From Candidatus Jorgensenbacteria bacterium RIFCSPLOWO2_01_FULL_45_25b (GTDB taxonomy: Bacteria > Patescibacteriota > Minisyncoccia > UBA6257 > GWB1-50-10), in NCBI GenBank assembly GCA_001781035.1, contig MFKK01000034.1, positions 1 to 52,633 on the forward strand: a stretch of 52,633 bases of DNA, in the 5' to 3' direction. Positions 1,405-51,120 of the stretch are shown in pieces. The notes under the pieces are model-generated. The model ran no database searches. It was given only the letters and a program-made list of their open reading frames with translations, and was not told the origin of the DNA. Within the stretch, counting starts at the first letter, position 1. Each line of letters starts with the position of its first letter. Made by a program: the position numbers and the translations under genes.

Positions 1405-2769
1405 ATGAAACAAAGCCAAAAGCCACTCCCCTCTCACTTAGAAGATTTTTTGGATTGGTTGGTTCGTAAACGTAATCTTACTTTGAAAACTCAAGCCAAC
1501 TATGCCCGGTTCTTGGAGAAATTTTTTTCTTGGCTTGGCTCTAATTACCTTTTTTCCTTAAGGCCGCATGAACTTACTTCAGACCATTTGGAAAAGTATC
1601 GTTTTTTTCTTGTCTCTGATAAACATCTCAAGTCCTCAACTCAAAACATTTATCTTATAGCCCTTCGTTCCCTCTTAACGTATTTTGTTGAAAATAATAT
1701 TTTCGCTCCTTCTCCAGAAAAAGTACATTTACTGGGAAGTGTTTTGACCAAAAAACCTCGTTTTTTAAGTTTTCAAGAATTACGGTGCTTATTAGAACAG
1801 CCGGATGTTTCTATGATTCGAGGACTTCGAGATAGAGTAATTATGGAATTATTGCTTGCGACAGGCCTTCGGATAAGTGAACTTGTTCGCTTAAATAGAG
1901 ATTTTCTTTCAAGTGATAAAATTTCAGAAGATTGCCATTATTGGATAGGTCGTTATATGGCCGTTCGTCTTGATAAGAATGAGGCGCTTTTTGTTTCTTG
2001 GCGAAATGAAAAGAAACAATTATCACCGAAGCGTTTGAGTGTGCGAACGATACAGCATTTTTTTAAAAAATACGCCACTGAGGCGGGAGTGCCTTTTGCT
2101 ATCACTCCGCACATATTGCGTCACACGCAAGCACAAAATTTATTCACTAGGTCTGTTGACTTAAAACCGCTTTATCGGGCGTGTGGTCATTCTCAGATGT
2201 TTTCCGGTGAATATGTTGCTCCTGTTGGGAATATTCGTTCCGCTCTTCGAAAAAACGAATTTGTATGGCATGATGTTGAAAAACGTATTCAGGATGAAAT
2301 TTGCTGGCTTCGGGAAGTAATTTCAACCTTTCTACGCGAAGAAAAACATGCGCCTGATGGATGTAGCCATTGTTTTTTGCGTTCCATCGCTATTTTGATT
2401 GTGCAAGGGATTATAAGTGCGACGGAAATTCGTTTTGACCACACTCAAGTTTCTTTTTGGAAAAATCCTCATACTAATTCTTATCCGCAAGAGATTTATC
2501 ATGGAAAAGATTGGCATCATAGGACAATGAGTCAAATCGAGGGTCATTTTATTGTTCAGGGCTATAAAGTTGTTCGCCAGCCGATCCTACAACAAGGGCG
2601 GGCAGACCTCGGTGTTTCTGATTTTGGAGGTATGGACTTATTTATAGAAGTAGGAACGGTCTCGCTATACAAGCTTATAATAAATTTTTTAAGCATGGAT
2701 AATTTCGTGTATCTTATTGCTCCACACGAAGGAGTCTTGGTAGAGTTTATAAAGAAAAAGAAAAAATGA
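1405..2769 (+). CDS. Degenerate tyrosine-recombinase-like protein with a ~170 aa C-terminal extension (possible PD-(D/E)xK-like fold)
   Basis: The N-terminus aligns residue by residue with the neighbouring Xer ('FLDWL..K.LS.KTQ.NY.RFL..FF.WL', 'LRPHELTS.H'). It retains 'ATGLRISEL', 'HILRH', 'GH' and a late Tyr. It lacks the 'GKGGRTRTV' beta-hairpin that carries the catalytic Lys. The extension contains 'GRADLGV...DLFIEVGT', which resembles a D...E-x-K nuclease core. Confidence 0.6.
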   Translation: MKQSQKPLPSHLEDFLDWLVRKRNLTLKTQANYARFLEKFFSWLGSNYLFSLRPHELTSDHLEKYRFFLVSDKHLKSSTQNIYLIALRSLLTYFVENNIFAPSPEKVHLLGSVLTKKPRFLSFQELRCLLEQPDVSMIRGLRDRVIMELLLATGLRISELVRLNRDFLSSDKISEDCHYWIGRYMAVRLDKNEALFVSWRNEKKQLSPKRLSVRTIQHFFKKYATEAGVPFAITPHILRHTQAQNLFTRSVDLKPLYRACGHSQMFSGEYVAPVGNIRSALRKNEFVWHDVEKRIQDEICWLREVISTFLREEKHAPDGCSHCFLRSIAILIVQGIISATEIRFDHTQVSFWKNPHTNSYPQEIYHGKDWHHRTMSQIEGHFIVQGYKVVRQPILQQGRADLGVSDFGGMDLFIEVGTVSLYKLIINFLSMDNFVYLIAPHEGVLVEFIKKKKK

Positions 2770-2781
2770 TGTGACATAATT

Positions 2782-3729
2782 ATGAAAAACTCAAATAAAA
2801 GTATACAACAATACGTTTCTGATTTTCTTGACTGGATTGATGTGGAAAAGGGCCTAAGCTCAAAAACCCAGGAAAATTATTCGCGTTTCTTGAAAAGATT
2901 TTTTGTTTGGCTGGAAGAAAAGAAAATTCTTGATTTAAAGCCTCACGAACTTACTCCGGAACATATATGGGAGTACCGTATTTATCTTGCTCGCAAGACC
3001 CATTCTCGACGAACTGCGACCTCTTTAAAAAAATCTACTCAAAATTATTATCTCATCGTTCTTCGTTCGCTTCTCGCGTATTTTGTGGAGAGAAATATTC
3101 CCTCTCTTCCTCCTGAGAAGGTGAAGTTGGCACGGGATAAAGACGACAAGGAGATTCGTTTTCTGACCTTGGAGCAATTGGAGAAGCTTTTTTTTGTGCC
3201 CGATATTTCCTCTCCTGCAGGTGTTCGAGATAGGGCTATTTTGGAGACATTTTTTTCTACTGGAATGCGTGTTTCGGAGTTAGTTGCCCTGAATCTTGAT
3301 CAGGTAAGGTCGTCGCTCCATTTGGATTCGCTGGAACTTGGAATTGTGGGAAAGGGCGGCAGAACACGCACAGTGTATTTTTCAAAACGCGTGCTTTCCT
3401 GGATCGAAAAATACCTTGAGATGCGGGGTGATTTTGAAGAACCGCTTTTTATTAATTATCGTTCTCCGAAAACATCTTCCCGACGGCTTAGTGTTAAATC
3501 TATAGAGAATCTTGTGAAACGCTACGCTCTCCGAGCGGGTCTTCCTAAAAATACTACCCCACACGTGCTTCGACATTCTTTTGCTACTGATTTATTAAAT
3601 AAAGGTGTTGATATTAGAATTTTGCAAGAGTTTCTTGGTCATAAGAGTATTACTGCTACCCAGATATATACGCATGTCACGAGTAAAAAACTACGGGAGA
3701 TTCATAAGAAATTTCATGGTACTATATAG
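2782..3729 (+). CDS. XerC/XerD-family site-specific tyrosine recombinase (canonical)
   Basis: The full catalytic set is present: 'STGMRVSEL' (Arg), 'GKGGRTRTV' (Lys), 'HVLRHSFAT' (His-x-x-Arg) and 'LGHKSITATQIYTHV' (His, Tyr). Confidence 0.9.
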   Translation: MKNSNKSIQQYVSDFLDWIDVEKGLSSKTQENYSRFLKRFFVWLEEKKILDLKPHELTPEHIWEYRIYLARKTHSRRTATSLKKSTQNYYLIVLRSLLAYFVERNIPSLPPEKVKLARDKDDKEIRFLTLEQLEKLFFVPDISSPAGVRDRAILETFFSTGMRVSELVALNLDQVRSSLHLDSLELGIVGKGGRTRTVYFSKRVLSWIEKYLEMRGDFEEPLFINYRSPKTSSRRLSVKSIENLVKRYALRAGLPKNTTPHVLRHSFATDLLNKGVDIRILQEFLGHKSITATQIYTHVTSKKLREIHKKFHGTI

Positions 3730-18140: not shown

Positions 18141-19379
18141 TCATGATTTTGAAATTTCGTGACGAAAATCTTTGCGCAGTAGGTCTAATTTATTTTCTTT
18201 AATTGCCGTTCGGATTTGTTCCATAAGGTTGTTGAAGAAGAAGACGTTGTGGATGGTCGCGAGGCGGGCGGCTGAAGGCTCTTTCAGCTTGAAGAGTTCG
18301 TGGAGGTCTTTGCGGCGGATGTTTTTTTCACCGCATGTTTCGCAGGCGCAATTCTTTTCAATCGGTTCGGAGTTTGTTTTTTGACCGCCTTTCATCATAT
18401 CAATCGCGCCGTTTTTCGTCCAAAGGCGTCCATGTCGCGCTTCGCGGGTCGGAATCACGCAGTCAAAGGTATCAATTCCCGCTTCCACGCCGTCAAACAA
18501 GTCTTCTATTTTTCCTATTCCAAGAAAGTGGCGCGGTTTTTCTTCAGGGAGTAGAGGGAGCGTCCAATCCAAAATTTCAAACATGTTGTTTCGCGATCTT
18601 CCAAGAGAGCCTCCTATCGCGAAGCCGTCAAATGGCAGAGAACCGATGTATTTCGCGCTTTCTTCCCGAAGGTCGCGAAATTCTCCGCCCTGTACAACTC
18701 CATAGAGCAACTGTTGTTGCTCTATGGAGTTGTAAGTTGAAAGTTGCAAGTTTGCTTTTGATTCGTGTTCTTCTAGGCAGATTTTTTCCCACGCGTGCGT
18801 GCGGGCGAGAGATTTTTTTGTGTATTCGTAATCGTGAAGCGGAGAGGTGCACTCGTCAAAGGCAATTATGATGTCGGCTCCCAATTTATGCTGAATTTGT
18901 ATTGATTCTTTGGGGCCTAAAAACTGCTCTTCTTTTTCCGTTGTCCCCCCCACATCGCTCGGGACAAGAAAATATGCGCCTTCATCCGTAATACGAACAC
19001 GAGATCGTAACTCGTAAGATTTACGAGTTACGATCTCGTAAGATTTTTCTATTTTCCCTACGCCGTGCTCCCGGCTGGAACCAAGGCTAAATACCTGAAA
19101 ACCGCCCGAATCGGTCATGATGGGGCCCTGAAAGCCAAGTTCGTTGTGAACTCCCTGGTATGTTTTTAACCCCTCGTTTCCCAGCCGTTGCCAGAGATGG
19201 TAGGTATTCGCAATCACAACCTGTGTTTTGGTTTTTATCAGGTCTTCCGGCGTTAGGGTGCGCACTTTCGCGTGGGTGCCGACAATGACATAGGCGGGGG
19301 TTTCAATGATGCCGTGAGAAGTGTGAATTGCGCCCGCGCGGGCGCGGGAGGTTTTGTCTTTTTTCTGGATTTCCAGCAT
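18141..19379 (-). CDS. tgt: Queuine/guanine tRNA-ribosyltransferase with two palindrome-derived in-frame insertions
   Basis: Motifs 'DSGGFQVFS', 'AFDECT', 'GVVQGG', 'FDGFAIGG', 'DCVIPTR' and the zinc motif 'CxC..C' are present. It aligns with E. coli Tgt except for extra segments of about 30 and 11 aa. Confidence 0.9.
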   Translation of the reverse strand: MLEIQKKDKTSRARAGAIHTSHGIIETPAYVIVGTHAKVRTLTPEDLIKTKTQVVIANTYHLWQRLGNEGLKTYQGVHNELGFQGPIMTDSGGFQVFSLGSSREHGVGKIEKSYEIVTRKSYELRSRVRITDEGAYFLVPSDVGGTTEKEEQFLGPKESIQIQHKLGADIIIAFDECTSPLHDYEYTKKSLARTHAWEKICLEEHESKANLQLSTYNSIEQQQLLYGVVQGGEFRDLREESAKYIGSLPFDGFAIGGSLGRSRNNMFEILDWTLPLLPEEKPRHFLGIGKIEDLFDGVEAGIDTFDCVIPTREARHGRLWTKNGAIDMMKGGQKTNSEPIEKNCACETCGEKNIRRKDLHELFKLKEPSAARLATIHNVFFFNNLMEQIRTAIKENKLDLLRKDFRHEISKS

Positions 19380-25896: not shown

Positions 25897-25972
25897 GCTA
25901 TCTCGCCGAATAACGAATTTCGTACGAATGTACGAATTTTCCTGGATTCGTATTTGATTTGATATTCGTTGA
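25897..25972. repeat. ACGAATA-family repeat filling the rpoA / rplQ spacer
   Basis: The sequence is 'gctatctcgccgaataacgaatttcgtacgaatgtacgaattttcctggattcgtatttgatttgatattcgttgatta'. The two halves are inverted relative to each other. Confidence 0.75.
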
Positions 25973-26767
25973 TTATCCTTTTTTCTTCGCGGTTTTCTTT
26001 GTTTTTGGTTCCTTCTTCTTTTCTTCTTTTTCGGTTTCCTTTTCGGTTGTTTCCTCTGATATGTTCTGTTTTTCGAACACTTCGGATGAAAGCATTTGTT
26101 CAAAGTGTTCTTTCAGAACGCTTGTCGCTTTATGAAGAGCCTCACTTGGAGTTATTGAGCCGTCGGTTTCAATTTCCAGTTTTATTTTGTTGTAGTCCGT
26201 TTTTTCTCCGACGCGCATGTTTTCCACATCAACATCAACTCTCATCACTGGAGAAAAGATGGCGTCCAGAACAATCGTTCCTATGGAGAGCCGTTCCGTT
26301 CTTTTTTCTTCCGAGGGGATATACCCAAGCCCTCTTTCCACGACGATTTCCATGTCCAACTCGGCTGTTTTTTTGGTGAGTGTGGCGATGCGCAGTTCGG
26401 GGTTTACAATTTCCACAAACGAATTTGTTTTTATGTCTTCCGCCGTTATTTCTCCCTCCCCCTTACCTTTTAGCGAAAGAGTTTGAGGTTCCTCTGTAAA
26501 GAGTCTAAATCTTACTTTTTTTAAATTCAGCGTGAATTCCACGATGTCTTCCATCATTCCCGGAAGCGTGGAAAATTCATGGTCTATTCCCTTGATTTTT
26601 ATCTGGGTAATTGCCGCTCCCGGCAGAGAAGAAAGAAGAACTCTGCGGAGCGAGTTTCCTACTGTTTGACCGTATCCGGTGTATAATCCTTCAATCGTAA
26701 ATACTCCGACATTTTTTTGTTCGGATATTTTTTTTACGCTTACCGATTCGTATAATGATTGGTTCAT
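25973..26767 (-). CDS. rpoA: DNA-directed RNA polymerase alpha subunit, N-terminal domain only, with a Lys/Glu-rich tail
   Basis: The alpha-NTD motif 'GNSLRRVLLSSLPGAAI' is present. The protein is 264 aa and ends 'EKEEKKKEPKTKKTAKKKG'. No alpha-CTD-like helix-hairpin-helix segment is present. Confidence 0.85.
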   Translation of the reverse strand: MNQSLYESVSVKKISEQKNVGVFTIEGLYTGYGQTVGNSLRRVLLSSLPGAAITQIKIKGIDHEFSTLPGMMEDIVEFTLNLKKVRFRLFTEEPQTLSLKGKGEGEITAEDIKTNSFVEIVNPELRIATLTKKTAELDMEIVVERGLGYIPSEEKRTERLSIGTIVLDAIFSPVMRVDVDVENMRVGEKTDYNKIKLEIETDGSITPSEALHKATSVLKEHFEQMLSSEVFEKQNISEETTEKETEKEEKKKEPKTKKTAKKKG

Positions 26768-26802: not shown

Positions 26803-27405
26803 TTATCTGCGAGCGTAGAATTCGCCGACCAGGCTTACGTCAAACGGCGATGACGCCTTATCTATTTCCGGTTTCGCGACTATCTCTCCCTCATGATTTG
26901 ACGTACGACGCAACCACTTGGGTTCCGTGTATTGCTTAAGATATGTTTCTATGTCTTCAAACATCTTAAGCTTTCGGGATTCTTCTCTGATTCCGACCTT
27001 GTTTCCTATGCTTGTTATGTATGACGAAACAGTCACTTTTTTCTTGTTTACCGTAATGTGTCCGTGAGAAACGAGCTGGCGCGCGACTCTCGTGGATTTC
27101 GCGAATCCGAAAAGAAAGACTACCCTGTCAAGCCGTTTCTCAAGTGCCTCCATGATTTCTTCGCGCTCATTTGATTTAAATATGTTCGTCATTTGACGGT
27201 TGGTGAGCCCGTAGGTAATTTGAAGTTTTTGTTTTTCCTGGAATTGGCGCCCGAACTCCGAGAGCTGTTTTTTGCGTTTTGCTCCGTGTACTCCCGGCGC
27301 GTGAGGTCTGCGAATCATCGCGCATTTCGGTGAATTGCAACGATCCGCTTTCAAAAAGAGTTTTGTTCCAAGCGCGCGTTCTTTTTTTTCTTTTACATTT
27401 CGCAT
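26803..27405 (-). CDS. rpsD: 30S ribosomal protein S4
   Basis: 'ERRLD.VVF..GFA.T...ARQLV.HGHI.VN' is the S4 domain. The operon position fits. Confidence 0.9.
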   Translation of the reverse strand: MRNVKEKKERALGTKLFLKADRCNSPKCAMIRRPHAPGVHGAKRKKQLSEFGRQFQEKQKLQITYGLTNRQMTNIFKSNEREEIMEALEKRLDRVVFLFGFAKSTRVARQLVSHGHITVNKKKVTVSSYITSIGNKVGIREESRKLKMFEDIETYLKQYTEPKWLRRTSNHEGEIVAKPEIDKASSPFDVSLVGEFYARR

Positions 27406-27440
27406 ATCAACGAATAACGAATTAGTTACGAATAAGCGAA
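27406..27440. repeat. ACGAATA-family repeat filling the rpsK / rpsD spacer
   Basis: The sequence is 'atcaacgaataacgaattagttacgaataagcgaattag'. Confidence 0.7.
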
Positions 27441-27896
27441 TTAGACGCGACGAGGTTTTTTTTGTCTCGGGCCGTTATGCGGAATCGGTGTTATATCTTT
27501 TAAGAGGCTGATTTGGAAGCCCTTGCTCGCGAGCGCCCGAATTGCCGAATCTCTTCCGCTCCCAACTCCTTTTACGTATACCTCCACGTTTATGGGGCCT
27601 GTTTTTTGGGTTTTTTCCGCGATTGCTTCGGCTACTTTTGAGGCGGCAAACGGAGTTGCTTTTTTTGGTCCCGAGAAGCCGAGCGATCCCGCGGACATCC
27701 ACGTTACAACGTTCCCCTTCTCATCCGTTACCGTCATCATGGTGTTATTGTATGTTGCCTGGACGTAAATTTTTCCTCTGTCGTGCTTTCTTTTTCCGCT
27801 TTGTTTTTCCTTTTCAGCAGTAATGACACCCTCAACGGTTTCCCGTTCTTTTATCAGCTCCTCATTTGTTTTTTTTATGACTCGTTTCTTACCCAT
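27441..27896 (-). CDS. rpsK: 30S ribosomal protein S11
   Basis: The S11 core 'YVQATYNNTMMTVTD..GN...W.SAGS.GF.G.KK.TPFAA' is present, with a basic N-terminal extension. Confidence 0.9.
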   Translation of the reverse strand: MGKKRVIKKTNEELIKERETVEGVITAEKEKQSGKRKHDRGKIYVQATYNNTMMTVTDEKGNVVTWMSAGSLGFSGPKKATPFAASKVAEAIAEKTQKTGPINVEVYVKGVGSGRDSAIRALASKGFQISLLKDITPIPHNGPRQKKPRRV

Positions 27897-28009
27897 AATT
27901 AGGCTTTAGGCTCTAGGCAACTAGGCTTTAGGCTTTAGGCTTTAGGCTTTAGGCTTTAGAAGCCGTACGCCTAGTCCCTAACGCCTAGCGCCTAACGCCT
28001 AGCGCCTTT
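27897..28009. repeat. TAGGCTT-family heptamer hairpin filling the rpsM / rpsK spacer
   Basis: 'taggctttaggctctaggcaactaggc(tttaggc)x4' is followed by the inverted arm 'gcctagtccctaacgcctagcgcctaacgcctagcgcc'. Confidence 0.85.
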
Positions 28010-28511: not shown

Positions 28512-28614
28512 TAGTTAGGCTTTAGGCTCTAGGCTCTAGGCAACTAGGCTTTAGGCTCTAGGCTTTAGAAGCCGTACGCCTATAGTCCCTAACGCCTAGC
28601 GCTTAACGCCTTTT
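28512..28614. repeat. TAGGCTT-family heptamer hairpin filling the infA / rpmJ spacer
   Basis: 'taggctttaggctctaggctctaggcaactaggctttaggctctaggctttagaagcc' is followed by 'gcctatagtccctaacgcctagcgcttaacgcc'. Confidence 0.85.
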
Positions 28615-30840: not shown

Positions 30841-31914
30841 TTATGTGGGAAGTATCGCGACAAGCTGTTTGATAAGAGAGAGCACAATCGCGGATGGCAG
30901 GAGGCTGTAAGACGGGACTCTTTCATCGTCTTGTATCACCCAGGGTTCTTGAATTGTTGTGACGGAGTTTGTTTTTTCATCTATTTCGTAGCGATACGCC
31001 GGGGTAAGCTCGTATTCATCCACATTGTTTTTTGCTTCGGAAACGGGAAGCGCGTTTCGGAGATAGATTTTCGGCACGCCTTCCAGCCTCAAAAGCGTTT
31101 TCATCACCTCCTTATCGGCTTCAATTCTTTCCCGCAAAGGTTCTATTCCGAGCTTATCCCCCTCTTTTCCGACGAGACGCGCTTTTTTGCATTCAGCGTT
31201 ATCGCAGATAAGATATATTTCTTTTTTTTCTGCGTCGTATTTTACTTCTTTTGTTTTTAAAAGTTTTATGCTTCTTGGCGTCTGGCACACCGGGCAAACC
31301 ACGCGATATTTCATTCGCTCGTCTATCACGCTTTCGGGAACATCTATGAAGGTGAAGAAGTCCTGGTCGTCGCGATATCCCATGAGCGCTCGGAAAAATA
31401 AGGAGTAGGATATTTGGTCAAGACTTCTCGGAAAGCCGTCAATAAATATCGCTTTCTTTTCGGAGCCCGCGATTTCCCGTTCCACGAGGGTGAGTATGAT
31501 TTCCGTCGGAAGGAGGGTTGTGGTGTTTCTTCCGAGGAGCGCGTCAATCGCGTCGTTTAGCGGAACGAGTCCCCGATAATTTTTTTTCAGATACTCAAGC
31601 AGTTCCGCTTTTTTTGCTTCATCTTTAAAGTCTTTGTGTATGCTTCGGACGATATCCCCAACCGATATGTGGCGGACGTGTTTTTCGCCTACGGCTTCTT
31701 TAAATAATTTGCAGTAGGTTCCCTTTCCCGAGTTTTTCGGGCCTAAAAGAAAGCCCACGAAGGTATTTTTTTCAAGATATGTTTTCAGCTTTTCAATTTC
31801 TTCGCCCGCTTTCGCTTCAAAGTATTTTTTTCGTTCCACGGGGTCGTCAAGATGAAACGTTTGCGTAACGCCTGGTGTTTTTGTTTTGAATATGGGAAAT
31901 TCGTAATTTTTCAT
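30841..31914 (-). CDS. Adenylate-kinase-family protein (long form with N- and C-terminal extensions)
   Basis: The P-loop 'GPKNSGKGT', 'ISVGDIVR', 'IDGFPRSLDQ' and the Cys4 lid 'CPVCQT...CDNAEC' are present. Confidence 0.7.
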   Translation of the reverse strand: MKNYEFPIFKTKTPGVTQTFHLDDPVERKKYFEAKAGEEIEKLKTYLEKNTFVGFLLGPKNSGKGTYCKLFKEAVGEKHVRHISVGDIVRSIHKDFKDEAKKAELLEYLKKNYRGLVPLNDAIDALLGRNTTTLLPTEIILTLVEREIAGSEKKAIFIDGFPRSLDQISYSLFFRALMGYRDDQDFFTFIDVPESVIDERMKYRVVCPVCQTPRSIKLLKTKEVKYDAEKKEIYLICDNAECKKARLVGKEGDKLGIEPLRERIEADKEVMKTLLRLEGVPKIYLRNALPVSEAKNNVDEYELTPAYRYEIDEKTNSVTTIQEPWVIQDDERVPSYSLLPSAIVLSLIKQLVAILPT

Positions 31915-33523: not shown

Positions 33524-33600
33524 ATTATCTCGCCGAATAACGAATTTTGTACGAATGAACGAATTTGTTTACTCGTATTTTATTTGTGTCATTAACTAGC
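33524..33600. repeat. ACGAATA-family repeat immediately upstream of aspS
   Basis: The sequence is 'tatctcgccgaataacgaattttgtacgaatgaacgaatttgtttactcgtatttta'. Its first ~25 nt match the element upstream of rplQ. Confidence 0.7.
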
Positions 33601-36008: not shown

Positions 36009-37169
36009 CTATAAGATAATGCCACCACCGAGGAGCTCGCCTTGTTTTGAATAGAAGACGGCGGACTGGCCGGAAGCTATTGCTTTTTGGGGGCTCTCAA
36101 AAATTAGTTGAAAGTTGAGAGTTGAAAGTTTATGGAGAGTTGCCAACACGAGAGGTTGGCGGTAACGGATGCGAGTTAAAAGTTGAAAGTTGAGAGTTGA
36201 AAGTTTTGTTTCAGTTTTTGGATTTATAAAATGGACGTTGGTGAGAATTAGTTCTTTGCGGTAGAGGGTTGGGTTTTCATCTCCTTCGGCGACTGTGATT
36301 GTGTTTGTTTTAAGGTCTTTTGCGGTTATGTAGTGAGGTTTTGTTTTGGGGGAGTTTGTTACCCGCAATTTTTTATTTTTTTCCCGCAAATCCAAACCGT
36401 GGCGCTGGCCTATGGTGTAGTAGTAAATTCCGTTATGAGTTCCCAAGATTTTTCCCTCGGTGTTTACGATGTTTCCTGGTTTTTGCGGAATGTATTCTTT
36501 TAAAAAGTCCTCCAGCGTTATGGAGCCCAAGAAGCAGATGCCTTGTGAGTCCTTTTTGTCGGCGGTTGGGAGGCCGGCTTTGCGGGCGATTTCTCTGACC
36601 TTCGGCTTTAGATAATCTCCTATCGGGAAGAGACAGTGTTTTAATTGATTTTGGGTTAGTGTCCAGAGGAAGTAGGATTGGTCTTTCGCACTATCGCGAG
36701 CGCTCATCAACGAATACCAAATTTTTTTTGAATTTACGAATTTACGAATACTGAATTTTTTTATTCGTTTATTCGTATTTGATTCGTTATTCGTTGATAA
36801 TTTTACATAATGGCCTGTTGCGATGAAATTCGCGCCCATCTTCAGGGCTTCGCGGAGAAATAAATCAAATTTAATTTCCTTGTTGCACATGACATCCGGA
36901 TTCGGCGTACTGCCGTTTTTGTACCCCTCAATCATGTATTCCACTACCCTCTTTTTGTATTCTTCTTCAAAATCAAACACATAGAAAGGTATTCCAAGAT
37001 GAGACGCGACACGGCGCGCGTCTTCCGCGTCCTTCTCGGCGCAACCATCAAGATTCAGGCAGCGCATGAAGACGCCTGTTACGTTGTATCCTTGTTTTTG
37101 TAATAACAAAGCGGCGACGGAGCTATCTACCCCGCCACTTAGGCCGACGAAGACTTTGTTTTTTCGCAT
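36009..37169 (-). CDS. mnmA: tRNA 2-thiouridine(34) synthase MnmA carrying repeat-derived in-frame segments
   Basis: Motifs 'GLSGGVDSSVAA', 'ATGHY', 'KDQSYFL' and 'SGQSAVFY...GGGII' are present. Relative to E. coli MnmA there are about 22 extra aa between ATGHYV and DSAKDQSYFL. Confidence 0.9.
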   Translation of the reverse strand: MRKNKVFVGLSGGVDSSVAALLLQKQGYNVTGVFMRCLNLDGCAEKDAEDARRVASHLGIPFYVFDFEEEYKKRVVEYMIEGYKNGSTPNPDVMCNKEIKFDLFLREALKMGANFIATGHYVKLSTNNESNTNKRIKKFSIRKFVNSKKIWYSLMSARDSAKDQSYFLWTLTQNQLKHCLFPIGDYLKPKVREIARKAGLPTADKKDSQGICFLGSITLEDFLKEYIPQKPGNIVNTEGKILGTHNGIYYYTIGQRHGLDLREKNKKLRVTNSPKTKPHYITAKDLKTNTITVAEGDENPTLYRKELILTNVHFINPKTETKLSTLNFQLLTRIRYRQPLVLATLHKLSTLNFQLIFESPQKAIASGQSAVFYSKQGELLGGGIIL

Positions 37170-37268: not shown

Positions 37269-37838
37269 ATGTTGTCGTATACGGATTTGAAACAGGGAAC
37301 GATTTTTGTGCGAGACGGAGAGCCGTGCCGTGTGTTGGAATACGAGTTTATTCGGATGCAACAGAGAAAACCCGTTGTTCAGCTAAAGATTCGGAAGCTG
37401 ATTTCGGGAAAGGCTATTCCCATGACGGCGTATCCCAGCGACACGTTTGAGGAGGCGGAAATTTCAACCGGAGAGGCGCGGTTTATTTATGAGAGCCGGG
37501 GAACATATTGGTTTCATCCTGTCGGGAATCCAAAAGAACGCTTTTCACTTACGGCGGATGCTATCGGAGAACAGGTGAAGTTTTTAAAACCCGGCATTCA
37601 GATTAAGGCTTTTCGTTTTGGTGAACAGATTATCGCCGTAGAATTGCCCGTGAAGATAGAGGTTGCGGTTACGGAGGCTCCTCCTTCGGTACGGGGCAAT
37701 ACCGCGCAGGGCGGGATGAAGACTGTTACGGTTGAGACGGGCGCGAAGGTTTTAACCCCCCTTTTTATTGAATCAGGAGACTTGATTCGGGTGAACACGC
37801 AGACGGGAGAGTATTCGGAGAGGGCGCAGAAGAGTTGA
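37269..37838 (+). CDS. efp: Elongation factor P
   Basis: The 189-aa protein begins 'DLKQGTIF..DGEPCRVLE' and contains 'VETG..V.VPLFI..GD.I.V.T..GEY..R'. Confidence 0.9.
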   Translation: MLSYTDLKQGTIFVRDGEPCRVLEYEFIRMQQRKPVVQLKIRKLISGKAIPMTAYPSDTFEEAEISTGEARFIYESRGTYWFHPVGNPKERFSLTADAIGEQVKFLKPGIQIKAFRFGEQIIAVELPVKIEVAVTEAPPSVRGNTAQGGMKTVTVETGAKVLTPLFIESGDLIRVNTQTGEYSERAQKS

Positions 37839-37903
37839 AAGTTGAAAGTTGAAAGTTGAAAGTTGAAAGTTGAAAGTTGAAAGTTGAAAGTTGAAAGTTG
37901 ACA
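37834..37903. repeat. Tandem array (GTTGAAA)x9 plus GTTGACA; contains the efp stop codon
   Basis: The array is a perfect 7-nt periodicity over 63 nt. The efp TGA (37836-37838) lies inside the first unit. Confidence 0.95.
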
Positions 37904-39927: not shown

Positions 39928-40430
39928 GGGCGAGTATATCAGGCAATAGCTCCGCTTTTGCGGAGAGGAAAGTCCGGACACTCGGCCTTATGCGCGGCAC
40001 AAGGAAATTCTAATTTCTAATCTCTAAACCGACCGAAATTCGCAGTCAGTTTAGAATTTAAGATATTAGATATTAGGATTTTCTCGTGCTGTGCGTGAGG
40101 CAAGGGTAGCGGGTAATGCCCGTCGTCCGCGAGGATAGAGGTGCGAACAGAGACGTCTGGGCGCGAAAGCGCCTAGAGAGCCCAATCCTAAGCTAGATGG
40201 CTTAATTCCGCCATAGGGAGAAAAAAGCGGAAGTGAAACGGTCCCGACGTTTCAGTCGGGACTCCGACCTCGTAAGAGTGTCGGATGCTAAATCCTTACT
40301 TGAGTGCAAGGTCGCGCCAGCAGTGCTCCGCACTGGTTGGAGAACCGCTTGATCTTGAGGGCAACCGAGAGACCAGATAAATTATTGCCGCTCTTTTGAG
40401 TACAGAATCCGGCTTACGATATACTCGCCC
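39928..40430 (+). ncRNA. rnpB: RNase P RNA (bacterial type A-like) with insertions
   Basis: P1 pairs 'GGGCGAGUAUAUC' with 'GAUAUACUCGCCC'. The P4 strands are 'GAGGAAAGUCCGGAC' and 'ACAGAAUCCGGCUUA'. A terminator 'CCCCCUUCGGGGGUUUUGUUUU' follows. At ~503 nt it is longer than the usual 350-400 nt. Confidence 0.9.
40003..40083. repeat. AATTTCT-family hairpin inserted inside RNase P RNA
   Basis: 'ggaaattctaatttctaatctctaaac ... gtttagaatttaagatattagatattaggattttc' sits on the stem GCACAAG/CUCGUGC, shortly 3' of the P4 5' strand. Confidence 0.8.
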
Positions 40431-40447
40431 CCTTCGGGGGTTTTGTT

Positions 40448-43440: not shown

Positions 43441-44545
43441 ATTTATTTAACGCTGTAATTCCTGGAAGAGTTTTACCGGAGAGATAATCAAGCATGGCGC
43501 CACCACCCGTCGAAATGTATAGATTTCGCAAATCCGAAATCCGAAATCCGAAATCCGAAACTAATTTGATTGAAGCAGTGGTTTCGCCACCGCCGACAAG
43601 CGAAAAGGCGGTTTTATTTTTGATGATAGCCTGCCACACGCCTTTTGTGCCTTTCTCATAGCCGTGTTTTTCAAACATGCCTATCGGGCCGCTCCAGATA
43701 ATGGTTTTTGATTCGGAGATGATGTTTGCGAACTTTTGAATTGTTTTTGGACCAATATCAAGAATTTTGTTGTCGTGAAACTTAATATCTTCGGGCAGAA
43801 GAATGTTGTTGTAAAGGAGATAGTCTTTAATATCTTTGACCTCATCAACGATGGAGTTCTTGACGTCTTCGCCCCGAGCTTTTAAGAAGGTGTTTGCCAA
43901 TCCCCCGCCAATCAGAATGGTGTTCGCTTTTTCTTTGAAATACTTAATAATATCGCCTTTATCTTTTATTTTTATACCTCCCAAGATGAGGGTGAGCGGA
44001 GGTTCGTATGTTTTCACCGCGCGCTCCAAATGTTCTATTTCTTTTTCCAAAAGCAATCCTCCGTAGAAGGGCAGAAATTTTGTGATGGCGCACACAGAGG
44101 CGTTTTCACGATGGGAGACGGCGAAGGCGTCGTTTATGTAGATGTCGCCGAGACCAGCCAGTTCTTTCGCAAAGTTTATATCGTTTGCTTCTTCGCGAAA
44201 GTCAAAGCGGAGGTTTTCAAAGAGAACTATTTGAGTTTTTGTTTGTACTTCCCTCCTTTCGGGATTACAATAAGGGAAGAAGCCTACTTTTGAACCGACT
44301 TTTTTCGCGAGCAATTTGGCGAACGGTCTTAGGGAGAGTTTTTTGTCTTTTCCCTCGGGTCTGCCCCGGTGGCTTATGATGTGAATACGACACCCAAGCT
44401 TTTGCAGAAAGCGTATTGTCGGGATGGTGGAATCCAAGCGGTACATTTCTTCTTTTGTCTTTGTGTTGATGTTTAAGTCAACGCGCAAAAGGCATGTTTT
44501 TCCCGCTATGTTTTCGGGGTTGATGGCTGAAAGGTAGTTAATCAT
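43439..44545 (-). CDS. pgk: Phosphoglycerate kinase, with a heptamer repeat in the C-terminal region
   Basis: Motifs 'RVDLN', 'SHRGRP' and 'STGGGA' are present. I placed the start at ATG 44545 ('MINYLSA...'), not at the ORF-track 44623. Confidence 0.9.
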   Translation of the reverse strand: MINYLSAINPENIAGKTCLLRVDLNINTKTKEEMYRLDSTIPTIRFLQKLGCRIHIISHRGRPEGKDKKLSLRPFAKLLAKKVGSKVGFFPYCNPERREVQTKTQIVLFENLRFDFREEANDINFAKELAGLGDIYINDAFAVSHRENASVCAITKFLPFYGGLLLEKEIEHLERAVKTYEPPLTLILGGIKIKDKGDIIKYFKEKANTILIGGGLANTFLKARGEDVKNSIVDEVKDIKDYLLYNNILLPEDIKFHDNKILDIGPKTIQKFANIISESKTIIWSGPIGMFEKHGYEKGTKGVWQAIIKNKTAFSLVGGGETTASIKLVSDFGFRISDLRNLYISTGGGAMLDYLSGKTLPGITALNK

Positions 44546-46037: not shown

Positions 46038-46450
46038 TAAAATGTTTTGTTGAAAGTAAACTTTTTAAGGTAGAAGTTTATCCTCTGCGTGAGGTATAAA
46101 AGTGTATTGCTCGAATAAGCAAGGTGGGATTTATTAGTACTCCTCGGCTCCATCCCTTGCGGGACTTCCACCTAGAGCCTATCAACCTGGTAGTCTTCCA
46201 GGAATCCATGATGCATTATCTTGGGAGGGGCTTCGTGCTTAGATGCCTTCAGCGCTTATCCCTTCCGAACATAGCTACCCAGCGATTCACCTGGTGGCAA
46301 AGCTGGTAGACCAGAGGTTCGTTCAACCCGGTCCTCTCGTACTAGGGTCAACTTCCCTCAAGCATCGTAACGCCGACAGTAGATAGAGACCAACCTGTCT
46401 CACGACGGTTTGAACCCAGCTCGCGTACCACTTTAATTGGCGAACAGCCA

Positions 46451-46483
<33 letters not shown>

Positions 46484-46497
46484 GTGAGCCGACATCG

Positions 46498-47331
46498 CAT
46501 CTTCTCTATTATTACTAATAGCGTGGACTATATCTTCATCCTTTTTATCTTAAAAAGGAGCTGACGTGTTAGCTGGAAACCATGTTTCCAACTCTGCCTC
46601 GTTGCAACCCAATGCATAAGGCAAGTCTCTACGGGGTTATAACTCAATTTTATATCTCATTGAAGGAATGATTTCTTTATCTAGTATTTTTCGCAATATA
46701 GCAAGTGAAGATTTTAGAAAACGCAACCGATAATACTGTTTATCTTTATTAAGAGTCGCTTTTAGATTGAGCTTTTGAAGTGCTCGCACTAACTTTTTCT
46801 GATCTTGAATGCTAAATTGTTGAGTATTCAGATATATGTCATTGGTTTTACAACGACTTCCATCATCCATGAACCAGACTGCTAAACTTGTTGGATCTAG
46901 GGTAAGGTTTGCAGGAATTACCTTTTTCGTTTTTCTATAAAAGAGTTGATGCAGAGCGGTTAGCTCTGATAACTGCTTTGAGTAGAAACGATAGGCAATT
47001 CTTGTTCCATTACTTTTCCGCATTTTGGGCGGAGAACCGGAAATATTTTTTAATATTTTATATTTCCAATCAACATATTCTTTTTGGGCAAAAGAATGAT
47101 TGATTTCCAAAAGAGCATGTTTTCTTTTTGGAATGATTCTTAGATAACCATCTCCCAAAAGCGTTCCAACAATCAATGATTTTTGTTGTTGAGTTAAACT
47201 TCCCACGGTATTGTCCATATAATGATTCTATCATTTCACTGTATGGAGTTCACCGTTATAAGTCAGATTTTTCTTTGATCGCATCACAGCGATCGGGAAT
47301 GAGATTACTCTCATTGCACCCCAATGTGTTA
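46498..47331 (-). mobile_element. Intron (group I-like) in 23S domain V carrying a LAGLIDADG ORF
   Basis: On the plus strand the conserved string 'gagccgacatcg|aggtgcc' is interrupted by ~834 nt. Joining the flanks restores the 'GGCACCUCGAUGUCGGCUC' consensus, at about E. coli position 2500. Confidence 0.8.
46637..47218 (-). CDS. LAGLIDADG homing endonuclease (double-motif)
   Basis: Both motifs are present, 'LIVGTLLGDGYL' and 'LAVWFMDDGS'. The gene lies wholly within the 23S intervening sequence. Confidence 0.9.
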   Translation of the reverse strand: MDNTVGSLTQQQKSLIVGTLLGDGYLRIIPKRKHALLEINHSFAQKEYVDWKYKILKNISGSPPKMRKSNGTRIAYRFYSKQLSELTALHQLFYRKTKKVIPANLTLDPTSLAVWFMDDGSRCKTNDIYLNTQQFSIQDQKKLVRALQKLNLKATLNKDKQYYRLRFLKSSLAILRKILDKEIIPSMRYKIEL

Positions 47332-47952
47332 AGGTGCCGAGCTCCGTCGTCGATGTGGACTCTCGGACGGAACCAGCCTGTTATCCCCGGAGTAGCTTTT
47401 ATCCGTTATCTCCGACCTTCCTATAAAGATTCGTCGGGTCGCTAAGCTCTGCTTTCGCACCTGCGCGACTTGTATGTCTTGCAGTTAAGCTGGCTTTTGC
47501 CTTTACGCGTCCAGCCCGATTTCCATCCGGGCTAAGCCAACCTTAATAGACTCCTCCGTTACTTTTTGGGAGGAATCCGCCCCAGATAAACTGCCCACCA
47601 GGCACTGTCTCCACGGCGTTTTGCGCCGCAGGTTAGATATTAACAACTAAAAGATGGGTATTTCACTGACGGCTCCATCCCATCCGAAAACAGGACTTCA
47701 AAGCCTCCCCACTATGCTACGCATCCAGACATTAATACCAATACCAAGCTACAGTAAAGCTTCCGGGGTCTTTTCGTCTTACTGTCGGTATCCCGCGTCT
47801 TCACGGGAATCGCATTTTCATCGGGCTCCTCGTTGAGACAGTTCTCCAGTCGTTACACCTTTCGTGCGCTCCGGAACTTACCCGGAAAGGAATTGCGCTA
47901 CCTTAGAACGGTTATAGTTACCGCTGACATTGACGAGGGCTTCGGACAGTAA

Positions 47953-48160
47953 GCCGCACCTCACTACGGTTCGGTGCGTACAGAAATAAATAGAAATTGA
48001 TAGAAATATGCTTCGCGAAATTAACCCCACCCCTCCCTCCCCTAAGACTTAGGGGAGGGAGACGGAGGGAGAGGTTAGTCTCTATTGAATTTCTATGAAT
48101 TTCGTCCCGAATAAAGTGAGGGACATATTTCTGTCGCATCGAACGATAGTGAGATGCGAC
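47953..48160. other. ~190-nt expansion segment at the tip of 23S helix 68 (E. coli ~1870)
   Basis: The conserved flanks 'GGUAAC..CCCUCGUC' and 'GGUUAACGAUGG' are separated by ~215 nt here, against ~28 nt in E. coli. The insert is a long imperfect hairpin with the apical stem 'cccctccctcccctaagacttaggggagggag' and the inverted arms 'acagaaata..' / '..tatttctgt'. Confidence 0.75.
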
Positions 48161-48830
48161 CTCCATCGTTAACCTTCTCGCATCGGTCAGGTGTCACCCC
48201 CTATACATCCTCTTACGAGTTCGCAGGGAGCTGTGTTTTTGTTAAACAGTCGCCAGAGAAACTTTCGCTGCGGGCGTGCTTACGCGCGCCAGGCCTTATC
48301 CCGAAGTTACGGCCGCTTTTTTGCCGAGTTCCTTAACGAGGACTCACCCGTTCCCCTTGGGCTTCTCGCCCTATCCACCTGTGGCGGTTTCCGGTACGGA
48401 TTCCATACTTCAACCTTAGAGGTTTTTCTTGAACGCGCGCTCTATCAACTTGCGTCGACACGTATGCCAACACTTGCCTCTACTCTGGAGTTTGCGACTA
48501 AACGCAGAGACGCGGATTTGCCTACGCCTCACTCTCGAGTCAAGGATGCCAAACCATTAAGACACTTAATGTACTGCGCGTTGTCCCCCCATCGGACTAT
48601 GAAATACGGAAGGGCTGGAATATTAACCAGCTGTCCATCAGCTTCGGCTTTCGCCATTGCCTTAGGGCCGCCTCACCCTCCGCCGATTCGCGTTGCGGAG
48701 GAAACCTTGGATTTTCGGGGAGCCGGTTTTTCACCGACTTTGTGATTACTCATGCCAGCATTCTCTCTTCCTAACGCTCCAGTCGCCCTCACGGATCAAC
48801 CTTCAGCGCATTAGGAATGCTCTCCTACCA

Positions 48831-49008
48831 CGCCTCGCGCTTTGCGCGAGGAAATCCTAAGCTCTAAATTCTAAATCCTAAACAATATCAAAACTCAAAT
48901 GACCGAAACTCAAAACATTTTGTTTTAAGTGTTTGGATTTTGAATTTAAAATTTGTTTAGAGTTTAGAGATTAGAATTTAGAATTTCCTTGTGCAAAGCA
49001 CAAGACAT
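48831..49008. repeat. Intervening sequence at 23S helix 45 built from an AATTTCT-family hairpin
   Basis: Between the conserved 'CCGAAG' and 'GGUAGGAGAGC' blocks lie three hairpins: CUUGUGC-UUU-GCACAAG, a ~140-nt heptamer-repeat hairpin, and CCUCGCGC-AAA-GCGCGAGG. Confidence 0.8.
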
Positions 49009-49684
49009 TCGCATCTTCGGTACCTTGCTTAGCCCCGGTAAATTTTCGGCGCCATCATCCTCGAATAGTGAGTTGTTACACACTCTTTAAAGGATGGCTA
49101 CCTCTGAGCCAACCTCCTATCTGTTTATGGATAATGACCACCTTTCACACTTAGCAACTCCGATACCCTTGCGGAGATCGGAGTCCCGACTTCACGTCGG
49201 GAGAATTTAGGGACCTTAGATGGCGATCTGGGCTCTTCCCCTCTCGACCACGGAGCTTAGCCCCCGCAGTCTGACTGCTAATGAACAACTCATGGTATTC
49301 GGAGTTTGATTGATCGTCCGAGCTTGCGCCCAGTGACGATCATCCAGTGCTCTACCCCCACGAGTCTATTTAATTAACGCTAGCCCGAAAGCTATTTCGG
49401 AGAGAACCAGCTATTACCAAGTTCGATTAGTTTTTCGCTCCTTACCCCAATTCATCCGAGAGTTTTGCACGGCTCACCGGTTCGGACCTTCATTCGATTT
49501 TACTCGAACTTCATCCTGATCAGGGCAAGCTCACCTGGTTTCGGGTCTTACACGTACTGCTTAATCGCCCTATTAAGACTCGCTTTCGCTACGCCTCCTC
49601 CCGCTTGGCGGGATTAGACTTGCAACACATGCAAACTCGCTGGCTCATTCTTCAATAGGCACGCCGTCACTCGCCGTTGCACAG

Positions 49685-49846
49685 CAGCGGAATTTCTAAT
49701 TTCTAATCTCTAATTTCTAAACAAACCCAAATGATAGAATGACTAATGACTAAAACAATTTAAGTTTAGACATTACACATTTTGACATTAGAAATTTATT
49801 AGATATTAGTAATTAGGAATTAGTTATTCCGATGCTGCGCATCGGT
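49685..49846. repeat. Intervening sequence at 23S helix 25, hairpin cassette copy 1
   Basis: The cassette reads 'gcacagcagcgg aatttctaatttctaatctctaatttctaaac ... gatagaatgactaatgactaaaacaattta ... attagaaatttattagatattagtaattaggaatt ... ccgatgctgcgc'. Confidence 0.85.
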
Positions 49847-50202
49847 TGAGCTCCGGCTCTTTGTAAGTAAGTGGTTTCAGATACTATTTCATCGCCCTCA
49901 CCGGGCTGCTTTTCACCTTTCCCTCACGGTACTGGTTCACTATCGATCACCAAATGTATTTAGCCTTACCAGATAGTACTGGCAGATTCCCTCAAGGTTA
50001 TCTTGGCCTTGAGGTACTCAAGAACAAGAACGATTGGTCACTTTGTTTTCGCCTACGAGGCTTTCACTCACTATGGCTGTCCTTTCCAGAACATTTGACT
50101 AACAAAGTGATTTGTAACCAATTACCAAATAAACTTCCGTAGCTCCGGAAATTTCCGAAGCTTCAGAAGTTTTTTGGAATGTTCTCGCCTTACAACCCCC
50201 GC

Positions 50203-50374
50203 CGCTGCACAGCAGCGGAATTTCTAATCTCTAATTTCTAATCTCTAATTTCTAAATAAATCCGAATGATAGAATGACTAATGACTAAAACAATTTACGT
50301 TTAGACATTTAAGCATTTTAACATTAGAAATTTATTAGATATTAGTAATTAGAAATTCCGATGCTGTGCATCGA
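50203..50374. repeat. Hairpin cassette copy 2 in 23S domain I (E. coli ~270-280)
   Basis: It has the same base stem, heptamer arms and central 'gatagaatgactaatgactaaaacaattta' core as 49685-49846. On the rRNA strand it lies just 3' of 'GUAGCGGCGAGCGAA..CAGCCC'. Confidence 0.85.
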
Positions 50375-50474
50375 CAGGTTTGGGCTGTTCCCTTTTCGCT
50401 CGCCGCTACTTGGGGAATACAAATTTGTCTCTTTTCCACCAGGTACTTAGATGTTTCAGTTCCCTGGGTGCGCT

Positions 50475-50631
50475 CCACTGCGTAGCAGCGGAATTTCTAA
50501 TTTCTAATATCTAATTTCTAAATAAATCCGAATGATAGAATGACTAATGACTAAAACAATTTACGTTTAGACATTAGAAATTTATTAGATATTAGTAATT
50601 AGGAATTAGTTATTCCGATGCTACGCACTGG
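50475..50631. repeat. Hairpin cassette copy 3 in 23S domain I (E. coli ~140)
   Basis: It is the same cassette, lying between 'CCGAAUGGGAAAACCC..' and 'GGGAACUGAAACAUCUAAGUA' on the rRNA strand. Confidence 0.85.
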
Positions 50632-51120
50632 TTACCGCGTTTTACACGGCAGGGTTTTCCCATTCGGAAATCTCCGGATCAAAGGTTGCTACACACCTCC
50701 CCGAAGCTTATCGCAGTTACGCCACGTCCTTCATCGCCATTTGGTGTCAAGGCATCCACCACCTACCCTTAACTTGCTTACATGAGCAATTTCACTTTTA
50801 TCTTACATATATGATATGCAAGAAACTTCTACCTTAGAAAGTTTACTTTCTTAACTGCCTATTTCGCCTGCTTGCGGGGCGAAATGAGGCTATGAAGTTT
50901 TCAAAGTTCAAGAAAGCATCCATACCGTCGGAGCGCCAATGTTGAGGTCGGCTTGTTTCGGCCGCAACATTGAGGCTCTTTTTCTGTCTTTGTTTCGCGT
51001 GTGAAGAAATAAAAATCCCGCCAGGTCTTGGCGGGCCGACACATCAATAATATAGGGCTTTCTTCACCCGTGTCTCCCACCTTGATATGTATTGGCTTTT
51101 TTCATTAGCAGTAAGTACCA

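Follow-up and report, generated by a model that had tools for sequence, protein, structure and literature searches.

Two dispersed repeat families lie in frame within an intact mnmA gene of a Patescibacteria genome

The 52,633-nt contig MFKK01000034.1 of Candidatus Jorgensenbacteria bacterium RIFCSPLOWO2_01_FULL_45_25b (assembly GCA_001781035.1, positions 1 to 52,633 of the forward strand; the window hereafter) contains an mnmA gene whose reading frame includes copies of two kinds of DNA repeat, a palindromic element of ACGAAT-type blocks and tandem arrays of the heptamer AGTTGAA. We favor, with a probability of roughly 0.6, the reading that mnmA is a working gene hosting in-frame copies of two repeat families that pervade the genome, and that these copies are passengers filtered by selection. 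The ACGAAT family is a dispersed palindromic one found mostly in spacers, and its copies in genes would persist only where frame, orientation, and protein architecture permit; the heptamer arrays lie in mnmA in their sole stop-free orientation and have replaced segments beside the RxRYRQ strand. Both would be essentially selfish or neutral passengers that spread by copying without target-site duplication, be it by slippage, by template switching, or by short-patch conversion between scattered members of the family, while selection would merely filter the sites at which they survive, by the logic proposed for Rickettsia palindromic elements.

The gene (36009..37169, minus strand) encodes a tRNA 2-thiouridine(34) synthase of 386 amino acids, the identity given to it by the first-pass annotation of this DNA. 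The three-domain MnmA architecture is present, with PF03054, PF20259, and PF20258 each over the cut-off by a wide margin (tRNA_Me_trans, 247 bits; _M, 80 bits; _C, 57 bits), and solved MnmA/TrmU structures match the protein with E = 1e-84 in a PDB sequence search. The PP-loop (SGGxDS motif, S11-S17) and the catalytic residues C95 and C212 fall in invariant columns of a 29-sequence alignment and are again invariant, with V18 nearly so, in an alignment of 118 sequences. An AlphaFold2 model built with 118 homologues has a mean predicted local distance difference test score (pLDDT) of 91.2 and a predicted template modeling (TM) score, pTM, of 0.88, and was superposed by Foldseek on 2hma, 2det, and 2deu with TM scores of 0.85-0.90. 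No frameshift, premature stop, or loss of an invariant family residue was seen in the open reading frame (ORF) or the alignment. As had been stated earlier, the frame stays open through the repeats: 15 contigs from several samples and assemblers encode the identical protein, the six displayed coming from six samples, and the identical ORF is present in the PRJNA268031 assemblies of the source aquifer. The coding-region arrays are unchanged across the 15 contigs, and contigs 99.5-100% identical to the window retain all of the repeats. Its domains, catalytic residues, model, recurrence on 15 contigs, and the near-identical contigs that keep the repeats indicate that mnmA is a working gene and not a pseudogene or the product of misassembly.

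The ACGAAT-type element at 36705..36798 (minus strand) is a 93-nt imperfect palindrome of CGAAT blocks, found both as an inverted repeat and by nhmmer (62 bits). Its arms (36706-36741 and 36763-36798) are 36 nt long, 72% complementary, and separated by 21 nt, and an inner arm pair of 16 nt is 88% complementary. As mRNA, the element folds at -27 kcal/mol (z = -5.35), a value that none of 200 shuffles matched. A hairpin had been reported here at 36715-36812, and it is present, although those coordinates are about 10 nt off. It is read in frame as residues ~125-155 (STNNES...IWYSLM), giving the peptide STNNESNTNKRIKKFSIRKFVNSKKIWYSLM between GHYV and DSAKDQSYFL; the junction and insert peptides predicted from the repeat-bearing frames of the gene are LSTNNESNTNK, FVNSK, IWYSLMSAR, LSTLNFQLLTR, and LSTLNFQLIFESPQK. 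Residues 130-154 stand opposite 5 residues in solved MnmA, a net gain of ~20 amino acids that agrees with the earlier claim of about 22 added residues between ATGHYV and DSAKDQSYFL. In the model, pLDDT below 50 is restricted to residues 130-145, which are bracketed by strands 122-126 and 152-156; the hairpin insert therefore falls in a loop, a point that had been left to a structural model. The element is a true insertion of ~20-25 amino acids that, as modeled, lengthens the turn of a surface beta-hairpin in the PP-loop domain, with a translated tip of ~25-30 amino acids that is predicted to be largely disordered. An intein or intron was considered and rejected, the size being unsuitable and no motif being present.

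The same loop varies widely among the 118 homologues, where it spans 11-93 amino acids and holds many unrelated low-complexity or hairpin-type peptides, such as KIQNSKFKIQNDNSKFKI, LVTSNQ...LVTSYQLL, and GVSGATPKSYP, that look like translated repeats. The ACGAAT motif occurs at the loop in 8 of the 118 homologues and requires seven parsimony changes, which is weak evidence given a poorly resolved, star-like neighbor-joining tree. Related genomes had been proposed as a place to look for the same insertions, and the element does occur at this loop in genomes whose MnmA is just 60-66% identical to that of the window. The copy in the L003 loop, which is of the short type, has its nearest counterparts, at 82-85%, in the tsaD and nifS-like genes of other genomes and not among other mnmA copies. 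The variable length, the unrelated fillings, the scattered motif, and the affinity of the L003 copy therefore mark the loop as a permissive site that has been occupied repeatedly.

The heptamer arrays have a different relationship to the protein. A 26-nt sequence, AGTTGAAAGTTGAGAGTTGAAAGTTT, is identical at 36106-36131 and 36181-36206; an identical GTTGAAA-type pair flanking RIRYRQ had been recognized correctly, but with a length of 24 nt. Within the window, 11 matches to a 24-mer of this repeat with at most three mismatches were found, against 0.00 expected. The 75-nt spacing keeps both repeats in one frame, with KLSTLNFQL on each side of LTRIRYRQPLVLATLH. At site 1 (36174..36206, minus strand), Tandem Repeats Finder (TRF) reports a period-7 array of 4.6 units encoding KLSTLNFQL(LT) (residues 322-330) before RIRYRQ, and at site 2 (36106..36131, minus strand) a period-7 array of 3.6 copies encoding KLSTLNFQL (residues 347-355), which forms a turn and strand immediately ahead of IFESPQ. 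In the AlphaFold2 model, site 1 comprises a helix end and strand E328-333, with a pLDDT of 84 for the block 321-330, and site 2 is a strand-turn-strand (E341-347 and E352-362) with a pLDDT of 95-97. Both sites, at 16 and 18 amino acids, are within the commonest lengths among the 118 homologues, and HKLSTLNFQLI at site 2 agrees with the family pattern YKLxxxxYKLI. Three insertions had been counted in the gene; the hairpin is one, but the two arrays, which do not lengthen the protein and lie in barrel strands and turns at pLDDT 84-97, are not. They have instead overwritten the segments flanking the RxRYRQ strand of the C-terminal barrel, and replacement without change of length suggests short-patch conversion or template switching over simple insertion. 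Both arrays carry the same variant unit, AGTTGAG, which implies that one is a copy of the other or that the two have a common source. Since AGTTGAA contains TGA on one strand, it can enter genes only antisense, and antisense is indeed how it lies in all of its coding-region arrays, the pair in mnmA and the single one in tgt. Coding-region arrays have ~3.6-4.6 units, three units being 21 nt or seven codons.

We rejected the idea of an inserted segment bracketed by the two 26-nt repeats, as RxRYRQP, the domain's most conserved strand, is encoded by the 49 nt that separate them. The region of the repeat pair folds below its shuffles (z -3.6), yet direct-repeat pairing does not account for this. 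The same heptamer also forms a perfect plus-strand spacer array of 9.9 units (37833..37901, TRF score 138), the first unit of which contains the TGA stop codon of efp (37836-37838). Together with three spacer copies of the ACGAAT element, this array bears out the earlier statement that both families also occur in spacers. Strain L205 has one 7-nt unit fewer in the array (at 37839), the sole indel in 21 kb, and contigs L001, L206, and L208 stop inside it.

Several other features of the gene and its relatives were observed. Other perfect in-frame hairpins lie directly before RVRYRQ at site 1 of mnmA in L002 and at sites 1 and 2 in L004, for example GGACATTCTGACGTTCTTGAGAACGTCAGAATGTCC, encoding GHSDVLENVRMS. 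The peptide HSxILxNVxM recurs in many homologues, which points to one more family of repeats. A fourth variable MnmA site (36355-36389, residues ~258-275) has 7 amino acids over solved structures at a pLDDT of 75-77; relatives read KNKELGIRG or similar there, a reading akin to that of translated GAATTAG heptamers. Between the window and strain L001, six of the seven mnmA differences lie within 28 nt (37062-37089, mnmA nucleotides 81-108), a cluster that looks like a short recombination patch. Proteins P0002 (MnmA) and P0126 (TGT) are identical or nearly so to the window protein in their N-terminal part and clearly diverged in their C-terminal part, so that each has arisen either by recombination between related populations or by chimeric assembly.

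The ACGAAT element is dispersed in the window and beyond it. The bare heptamer ACGAATA is weakly enriched in the window (15 occurrences against 7.7 expected; 2 of 100 shuffles reach 15), and an nhmmer profile that was built from five copies and spans the whole element detects four copies there, one in mnmA and three in spacers. The copy between rpoA and rplQ (25901..25974, minus strand) is full length (E = 2.6e-10) with a weaker fold (z -1.8), a degenerate copy at 33528..33598 (minus strand; E = 7e-6, fold z -0.8) is 79% identical to it, and a half copy between rpsK and rpsD (27405..27465, strand not set) covers model positions 1-40 (E = 5e-5). The profile also places the element in mnmA of L002, L003, L004, and L011; L003 carries it twice, at the loop and at a second site, and L011 carries it at that second, C-terminal site. 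In metagenome contigs, at least 120 stretches match a pattern requiring both termini, ATCARCGAATRACGAAT...ATTCGYTATTCGYTGAT. Across the family, the element is ~66-93 nt long, with four CGAAT/ATTCG blocks per arm and extended termini ATCA...TGAT conserved at 88-92%; the centers vary (median identity 0.52), and 60% nonetheless fold with z < -2. Similarity across the family is 60-88%, irrespective of host gene or genome.

Hosts were surveyed in 123 copies among the matches listed from one metagenome scan, of which 14 are well inside long ORFs, three of these ORFs being spurious-looking. The eleven credible host ORFs among these matches encode MnmA (five), TsaD (two, sharing one site), QueA, UppS, a glycosyltransferase of the GT4 type, and a class-V aminotransferase that holds two copies; the protein families are MnmA, TsaD, QueA, Aminotran_5, Prenyltransf, and Glycos_transf_1. 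As a side observation, enzymes of tRNA modification or sulfur relay make up four of the six host families (MnmA, TsaD, QueA, and the class-V aminotransferase; loci L101, L104, L133, L175, L200, and L203 plus the mnmA loci). For further hosts, a doubled peptide profile search returned four tiny ORFs and an exhaustive representative search four matches at E <= 0.001. The first-pass annotation had offered selection for translatability as one explanation of the open frame, but the family as a whole gives this no support. Of the core unit's three frames, one is always interrupted by TAA or TGA, no spanning ORF could be called for ~40% of the 123 copies, only the 14 noted above are in long ORFs, and the frame in use differs between hosts, giving other peptides such as RITN...FVIR and ...SLFA. 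All 12 coding-region copies examined, from four protein families, lack stops in the frame of the host and have lengths divisible by three, and in-frame copies look like survivors whose frame, orientation, and site happened to be permissive.

The conservation of the element was compared with that of the gene around it in eight mnmA orthologues, across which synonymous sites are saturated. Codons for the same amino acid are identical in 448 of 506 cases inside the element (88.5%) and in 2036 of 4996 elsewhere in the gene (40.8%). Mismatches per codon position are nearly flat in the element (0.18/0.21/0.22) and uneven in the remaining gene (0.35/0.26/0.63), and the variation within the element is amino-acid-changing. 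This codon identity, the flat divergence over codon positions, and the invariant CGAAT/ATTCG blocks indicate that what is conserved is the DNA or RNA sequence and not the peptide.

Several results weigh against a simple passenger. The nucleotide conservation of the element is too strong for a neutrally decaying passenger; the four CGAAT/ATTCG blocks per arm are invariant in the 12 coding copies from four gene families, with variation restricted to internal loops; and the mnmA copy folds better than the spacer copies of the window, which are degenerate and fold no better than shuffles. The bias to tRNA-modification and sulfur-relay hosts (four of six) would not be predicted for a random passenger, although the sample is small and orthologous copies are non-independent. 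Flanking direct matches in 121 copies had the same lengths as a permuted control, giving no sign of target-site duplication, and no associated transposase is among the Pfam hits of the window, so the mobility of the family is inferred from its distribution alone. The translation of the inserts, too, is a prediction from reading frames. The conservation could come from selection on a nucleic-acid function, from homogenization among copies, or from recent recurrent insertion. This conservation, which it does not explain, is our main reason for not rating the passenger model higher.

The same conservation lends weight to an explanation that we consider unlikely but serious, in which the ACGAAT hairpin is a cis-acting nucleic-acid module under selection in ORFs and spacers and the peptide a tolerated by-product. 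Such a module could work as an RNA structure or through proteins that bind its CGAAT blocks, could serve processing, stability, or regulation in a set of genes that share it, or could be where a still-active mobilizing enzyme recognizes the DNA. It would account for the low, flat divergence and frozen synonymous sites, for the restriction of change to internal loops, for a family similarity of 60-88% whatever the host gene or genome, and for the strong fold of the mnmA copy; copies between ribosomal-protein operon genes would be co-transcribed, and the lean of the hosts towards tRNA-modification enzymes is in its favor. It does not sit easily with the degenerate, poorly folding spacer copies, nor with the many relatives that have an 11-residue loop and no element, or unrelated elements at the site. 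None of the 24 predicted hairpin pairs varies on both sides, so that compensatory change gives it no support, a result which says nothing on structure. A broader version is doubtful in our view: that across Patescibacteria the CGAAT-block hairpin is kept by selection at the nucleic-acid level in the frames of tRNA-modification and sulfur-relay genes (mnmA, tsaD, queA, and a cysteine-desulfurase-like gene) and in spacers, as a cis-regulatory or processing signal or as the footprint of an unrecognized active, site-preferring mobilization system that leaves no target duplications, the heptamer arrays and hairpins of rRNA, RNase P RNA, and enzyme genes being further products of the same machinery.

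We find it improbable that the inserted peptide is a functional lineage-specific module kept at the protein level, for example a basic appendage with which a tRNA-modifying enzyme holds RNA. The sequence xNNExxTNKRIxxFVNSxxIRYSLM, with its many Lys and Arg residues, does recur in 8 of 118 homologues at the same loop, and several hosts bind tRNA. Its divergence lacks codon-position periodicity, however, and its variation changes amino acids; disorder is predicted for it, the reading frame of the element differs in other hosts, and the loop is dispensable or filled with something unrelated in most relatives. Nor is it a conserved protein segment lacking repeat similarity in its DNA, an outcome foreseen earlier as refuting a repeat origin, as the DNA similarity exceeds protein-level constraint.

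That the DNA carries the element but the protein lacks it, owing to translational bypassing, excision from the RNA, or a comparable process, is very improbable. Stable coding-region hairpins mark known bypass elements, such as those of T4 gene 60 and the mitochondrial 'byps', and the 23S rRNA and the RNase P RNA must either tolerate the heptamer-arm hairpins that their genes contain or lose them at the RNA level. Yet all 12 coding copies in four families are stop-free multiples of 3 nt, neither paired take-off and landing codons nor boundaries resembling splice sites were seen, and the residues flanking the element are modeled as the two strands of a hairpin. A decaying or very recent pseudogene, as had been suggested, or repeats arising as assembly artefacts, scarcely deserve credence: repeats in a coding region are unusual and some contigs break in the neighboring spacer array, but the same ORF, free of stops and frameshifts, recurs on 15 contigs from several samples and assemblers, all domains and invariant residues are present, the model is confident, and a 99.5%-identical strain keeps the same repeats.

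In-frame hairpins and heptamer arrays are not peculiar to mnmA; they are a genome-wide phenomenon. Period 7 accounts for 26 of the 28 arrays in the window with at least three units, against ~0 in random sequence, and array density is ~8-fold that of 1.28 Mb of related loci, in which period 7 is also the commonest class. The heptamer units are diverse (AATTTCT, TTAGGCT, AGTTGAA, AAATCCG, and others), and many arrays are the two arms of long hairpins. In tgt (18141..19379), an AGTTGAA-type array (18728..18752, minus strand, TRF period 7) is in frame as ANLQLSTYN, part of an 11-residue surplus over solved TGT, and the unit occurs at the same site in two other genomes as a residue-for-residue replacement (FQLSTNNFQ against IQPLNKKEQ). 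The same gene has two perfect 19-bp hairpins. The one at 18693..18734 (minus strand, -34.8 kcal/mol, z -8.2) has arms encoding the conserved LLYGVV and YNSIEQ, is missing from the 79%-identical homologue P0126, and has in its YNSIEQ arm what seems to be native coding sequence duplicated in inverse orientation. The other (18999..19039, minus strand, -30.5 kcal/mol, z -8.1) lies within an insert of 25 amino acids (residues 105-129) seen in comparison with TGT structures in the PDB. In pgk, a perfect (CGGATTT)x4.4 array, equivalent to AAATCCG (43530..43560, minus strand, 100% matches in TRF), is in frame as SDFGFRISDLR and adds ~6 amino acids over solved PGK. The tgt and pgk repeats occupy positions where solved homologues show gaps.

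The RNA genes are similarly affected. The 23S rRNA gene (46115-50779, minus strand) is 4665 nt long against a family model of 2925 nt and contains a LAGLIDADG ORF (46637..47218) as well as three near-identical hairpins of ~165 nt, whose arms are AATTTCT/AGAAATT heptamer arrays within common GCAGCGG...CCGATGCTGC flanks. Four hairpins were located, at ~49668-49850, 50196-50376, 50469-50636, and 48834-49004, of which one is related rather than near-identical. A class-A RNase P RNA (39931-40431, plus strand) scores 94.9 bits, just below the Rfam gathering score of 100, and has an insert of 156 nt (~40005-40085) where the model has 11 nt, including a hairpin with AATTTCT-family heptamer arms. In cyanobacteria, heptamers of the short tandemly repeated repetitive (STRR) type likewise lie inside the RNase P RNA gene.

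The surroundings of mnmA comprise ComEC, efp, a ribosomal-protein operon, and the 4.7-kb 23S rRNA gene with its LAGLIDADG ORF, and the named relatives are Liptonbacteria, Jorgensenbacteria, and Wolfebacteria; neighborhood and relatives together assign the gene to Patescibacteria of the Paceibacteria type. In the ribosomal-protein operon, two ~100-nt hairpin copies with arms of TTAGGCT/AGCCTAA-type arrays flank rpsM (27897-28009 and 28516-28610), one of them folding at -58.6 kcal/mol (z -4.6). An adenylate-kinase ORF (30841-31914) encodes 357 amino acids, of which the ADK match covers residues 131-247 only, the remaining sequence being extra. Two adjacent ORFs of the tyrosine-recombinase (phage-integrase) family (1405-3729) are the sole recombinases among the Pfam hits of the window; the first encodes 454 amino acids and matches part of the catalytic domain only, and neither has a demonstrated link to the repeats. 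An apparent rearrangement in L215 at ~24330 was rejected as a scaffold gap of Ns.

Tiny, streamlined Patescibacteria genomes whose essential enzymes, 23S rRNA, and RNase P RNA are laden with repeats contradict a simple picture of streamlining. If the passenger reading is right, they offer a second, independent, and apparently much broader case of 'selfish DNA inside proteins' of the Rickettsia type and a concrete source for the lineage-specific insertions and length variation of Patescibacteria proteins. Such inserts inflate apparent protein divergence, yield spurious small ORFs, and break assemblies. The unexplained nucleotide conservation and the possible host-gene bias keep a more interesting reading possible, and both can be tested with existing groundwater metatranscriptomes and metaproteomes. 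We found no report of such elements in Patescibacteria, or the candidate phyla radiation (CPR), in the searchable literature, whose coverage is incomplete, so that this is absence of evidence only.

Among known systems, MITEs (miniature transposable elements with inverted repeats) and repetitive extragenic palindromes with their bacterial interspersed mosaic elements (REP/BIME) are also small, non-autonomous-looking, hairpin-forming, multi-copy, and sometimes in frame. The ACGAAT element differs from MITEs in having no excess of target-site duplications. REP/BIME are extragenic palindromes of 20-40 bp, whereas the ACGAAT element is 66-93 nt long, is also intragenic, and has ATCA...TGAT termini with no GTAG/CGTC tag; no cognate insertion sequence (IS) or REP-associated tyrosine transposase (RAYT) was found in the window, RAYT not having been searched for genome-wide. 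Nematomorpha mitochondrial genes contain long near-perfect inverted repeats in conserved coding genes, with both arms translated (PMC6649704). The tgt hairpin at 18693-18734 resembles these in that one arm encodes a conserved segment, but theirs are gene-specific inverted duplications in animal mitochondria and the mnmA element belongs to a family dispersed across genes and genomes.

The GTTGAAA repeats compare with bacterial heptanucleotide repeats, which include long simple sequence repeats, the STRR of cyanobacteria, and the TAACTGA repeats of Beggiatoaceae (PMC4679880 and the work that it reviews). Dominance of period 7, mostly intergenic location, one stop-bearing orientation, and copy change by whole units are shared with these repeats. 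TRF places head-to-tail 7-nt units at 36106-36130, 36174-36205, 37833-37901, and 18728-18752, and strains vary by units. The differences from them are that many units coexist in one genome here, often as hairpin arms and inside MnmA, TGT, PGK, and 23S rRNA, and that the two mnmA copies are identical down to the variant unit, which points to copying over independent slippage.

For the ACGAAT element in mnmA, the closest analogue is the Rickettsia palindromic elements (RPEs; Ogata et al. 2000, 2002, summarized in PMC10969869), palindromic repeats that lie in spacers and in frame in unrelated housekeeping genes. The two have in common dispersed spacer and in-frame copies, a fold-compatible insert, the lack of a known transposase or obvious function, and a peptide that is a by-product of the DNA. 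The ACGAAT element is multi-copy with intergenic copies, forms hairpins, is in frame in unrelated families, and, in MnmA only, was placed in a loop. It differs from RPEs in its unrelated host (Patescibacteria), in its length of ~66-93 nt against ~100-150 bp, and in its CGAAT blocks spaced by 7-8 nt and read in several frames, where an RPE has one conserved ORF; its nucleotides are, moreover, far more conserved than the host gene across deeply diverged genomes. The likeness is one of pattern, and we propose the RPEs as an analogue of the ACGAAT element without claiming it as a member of their family.

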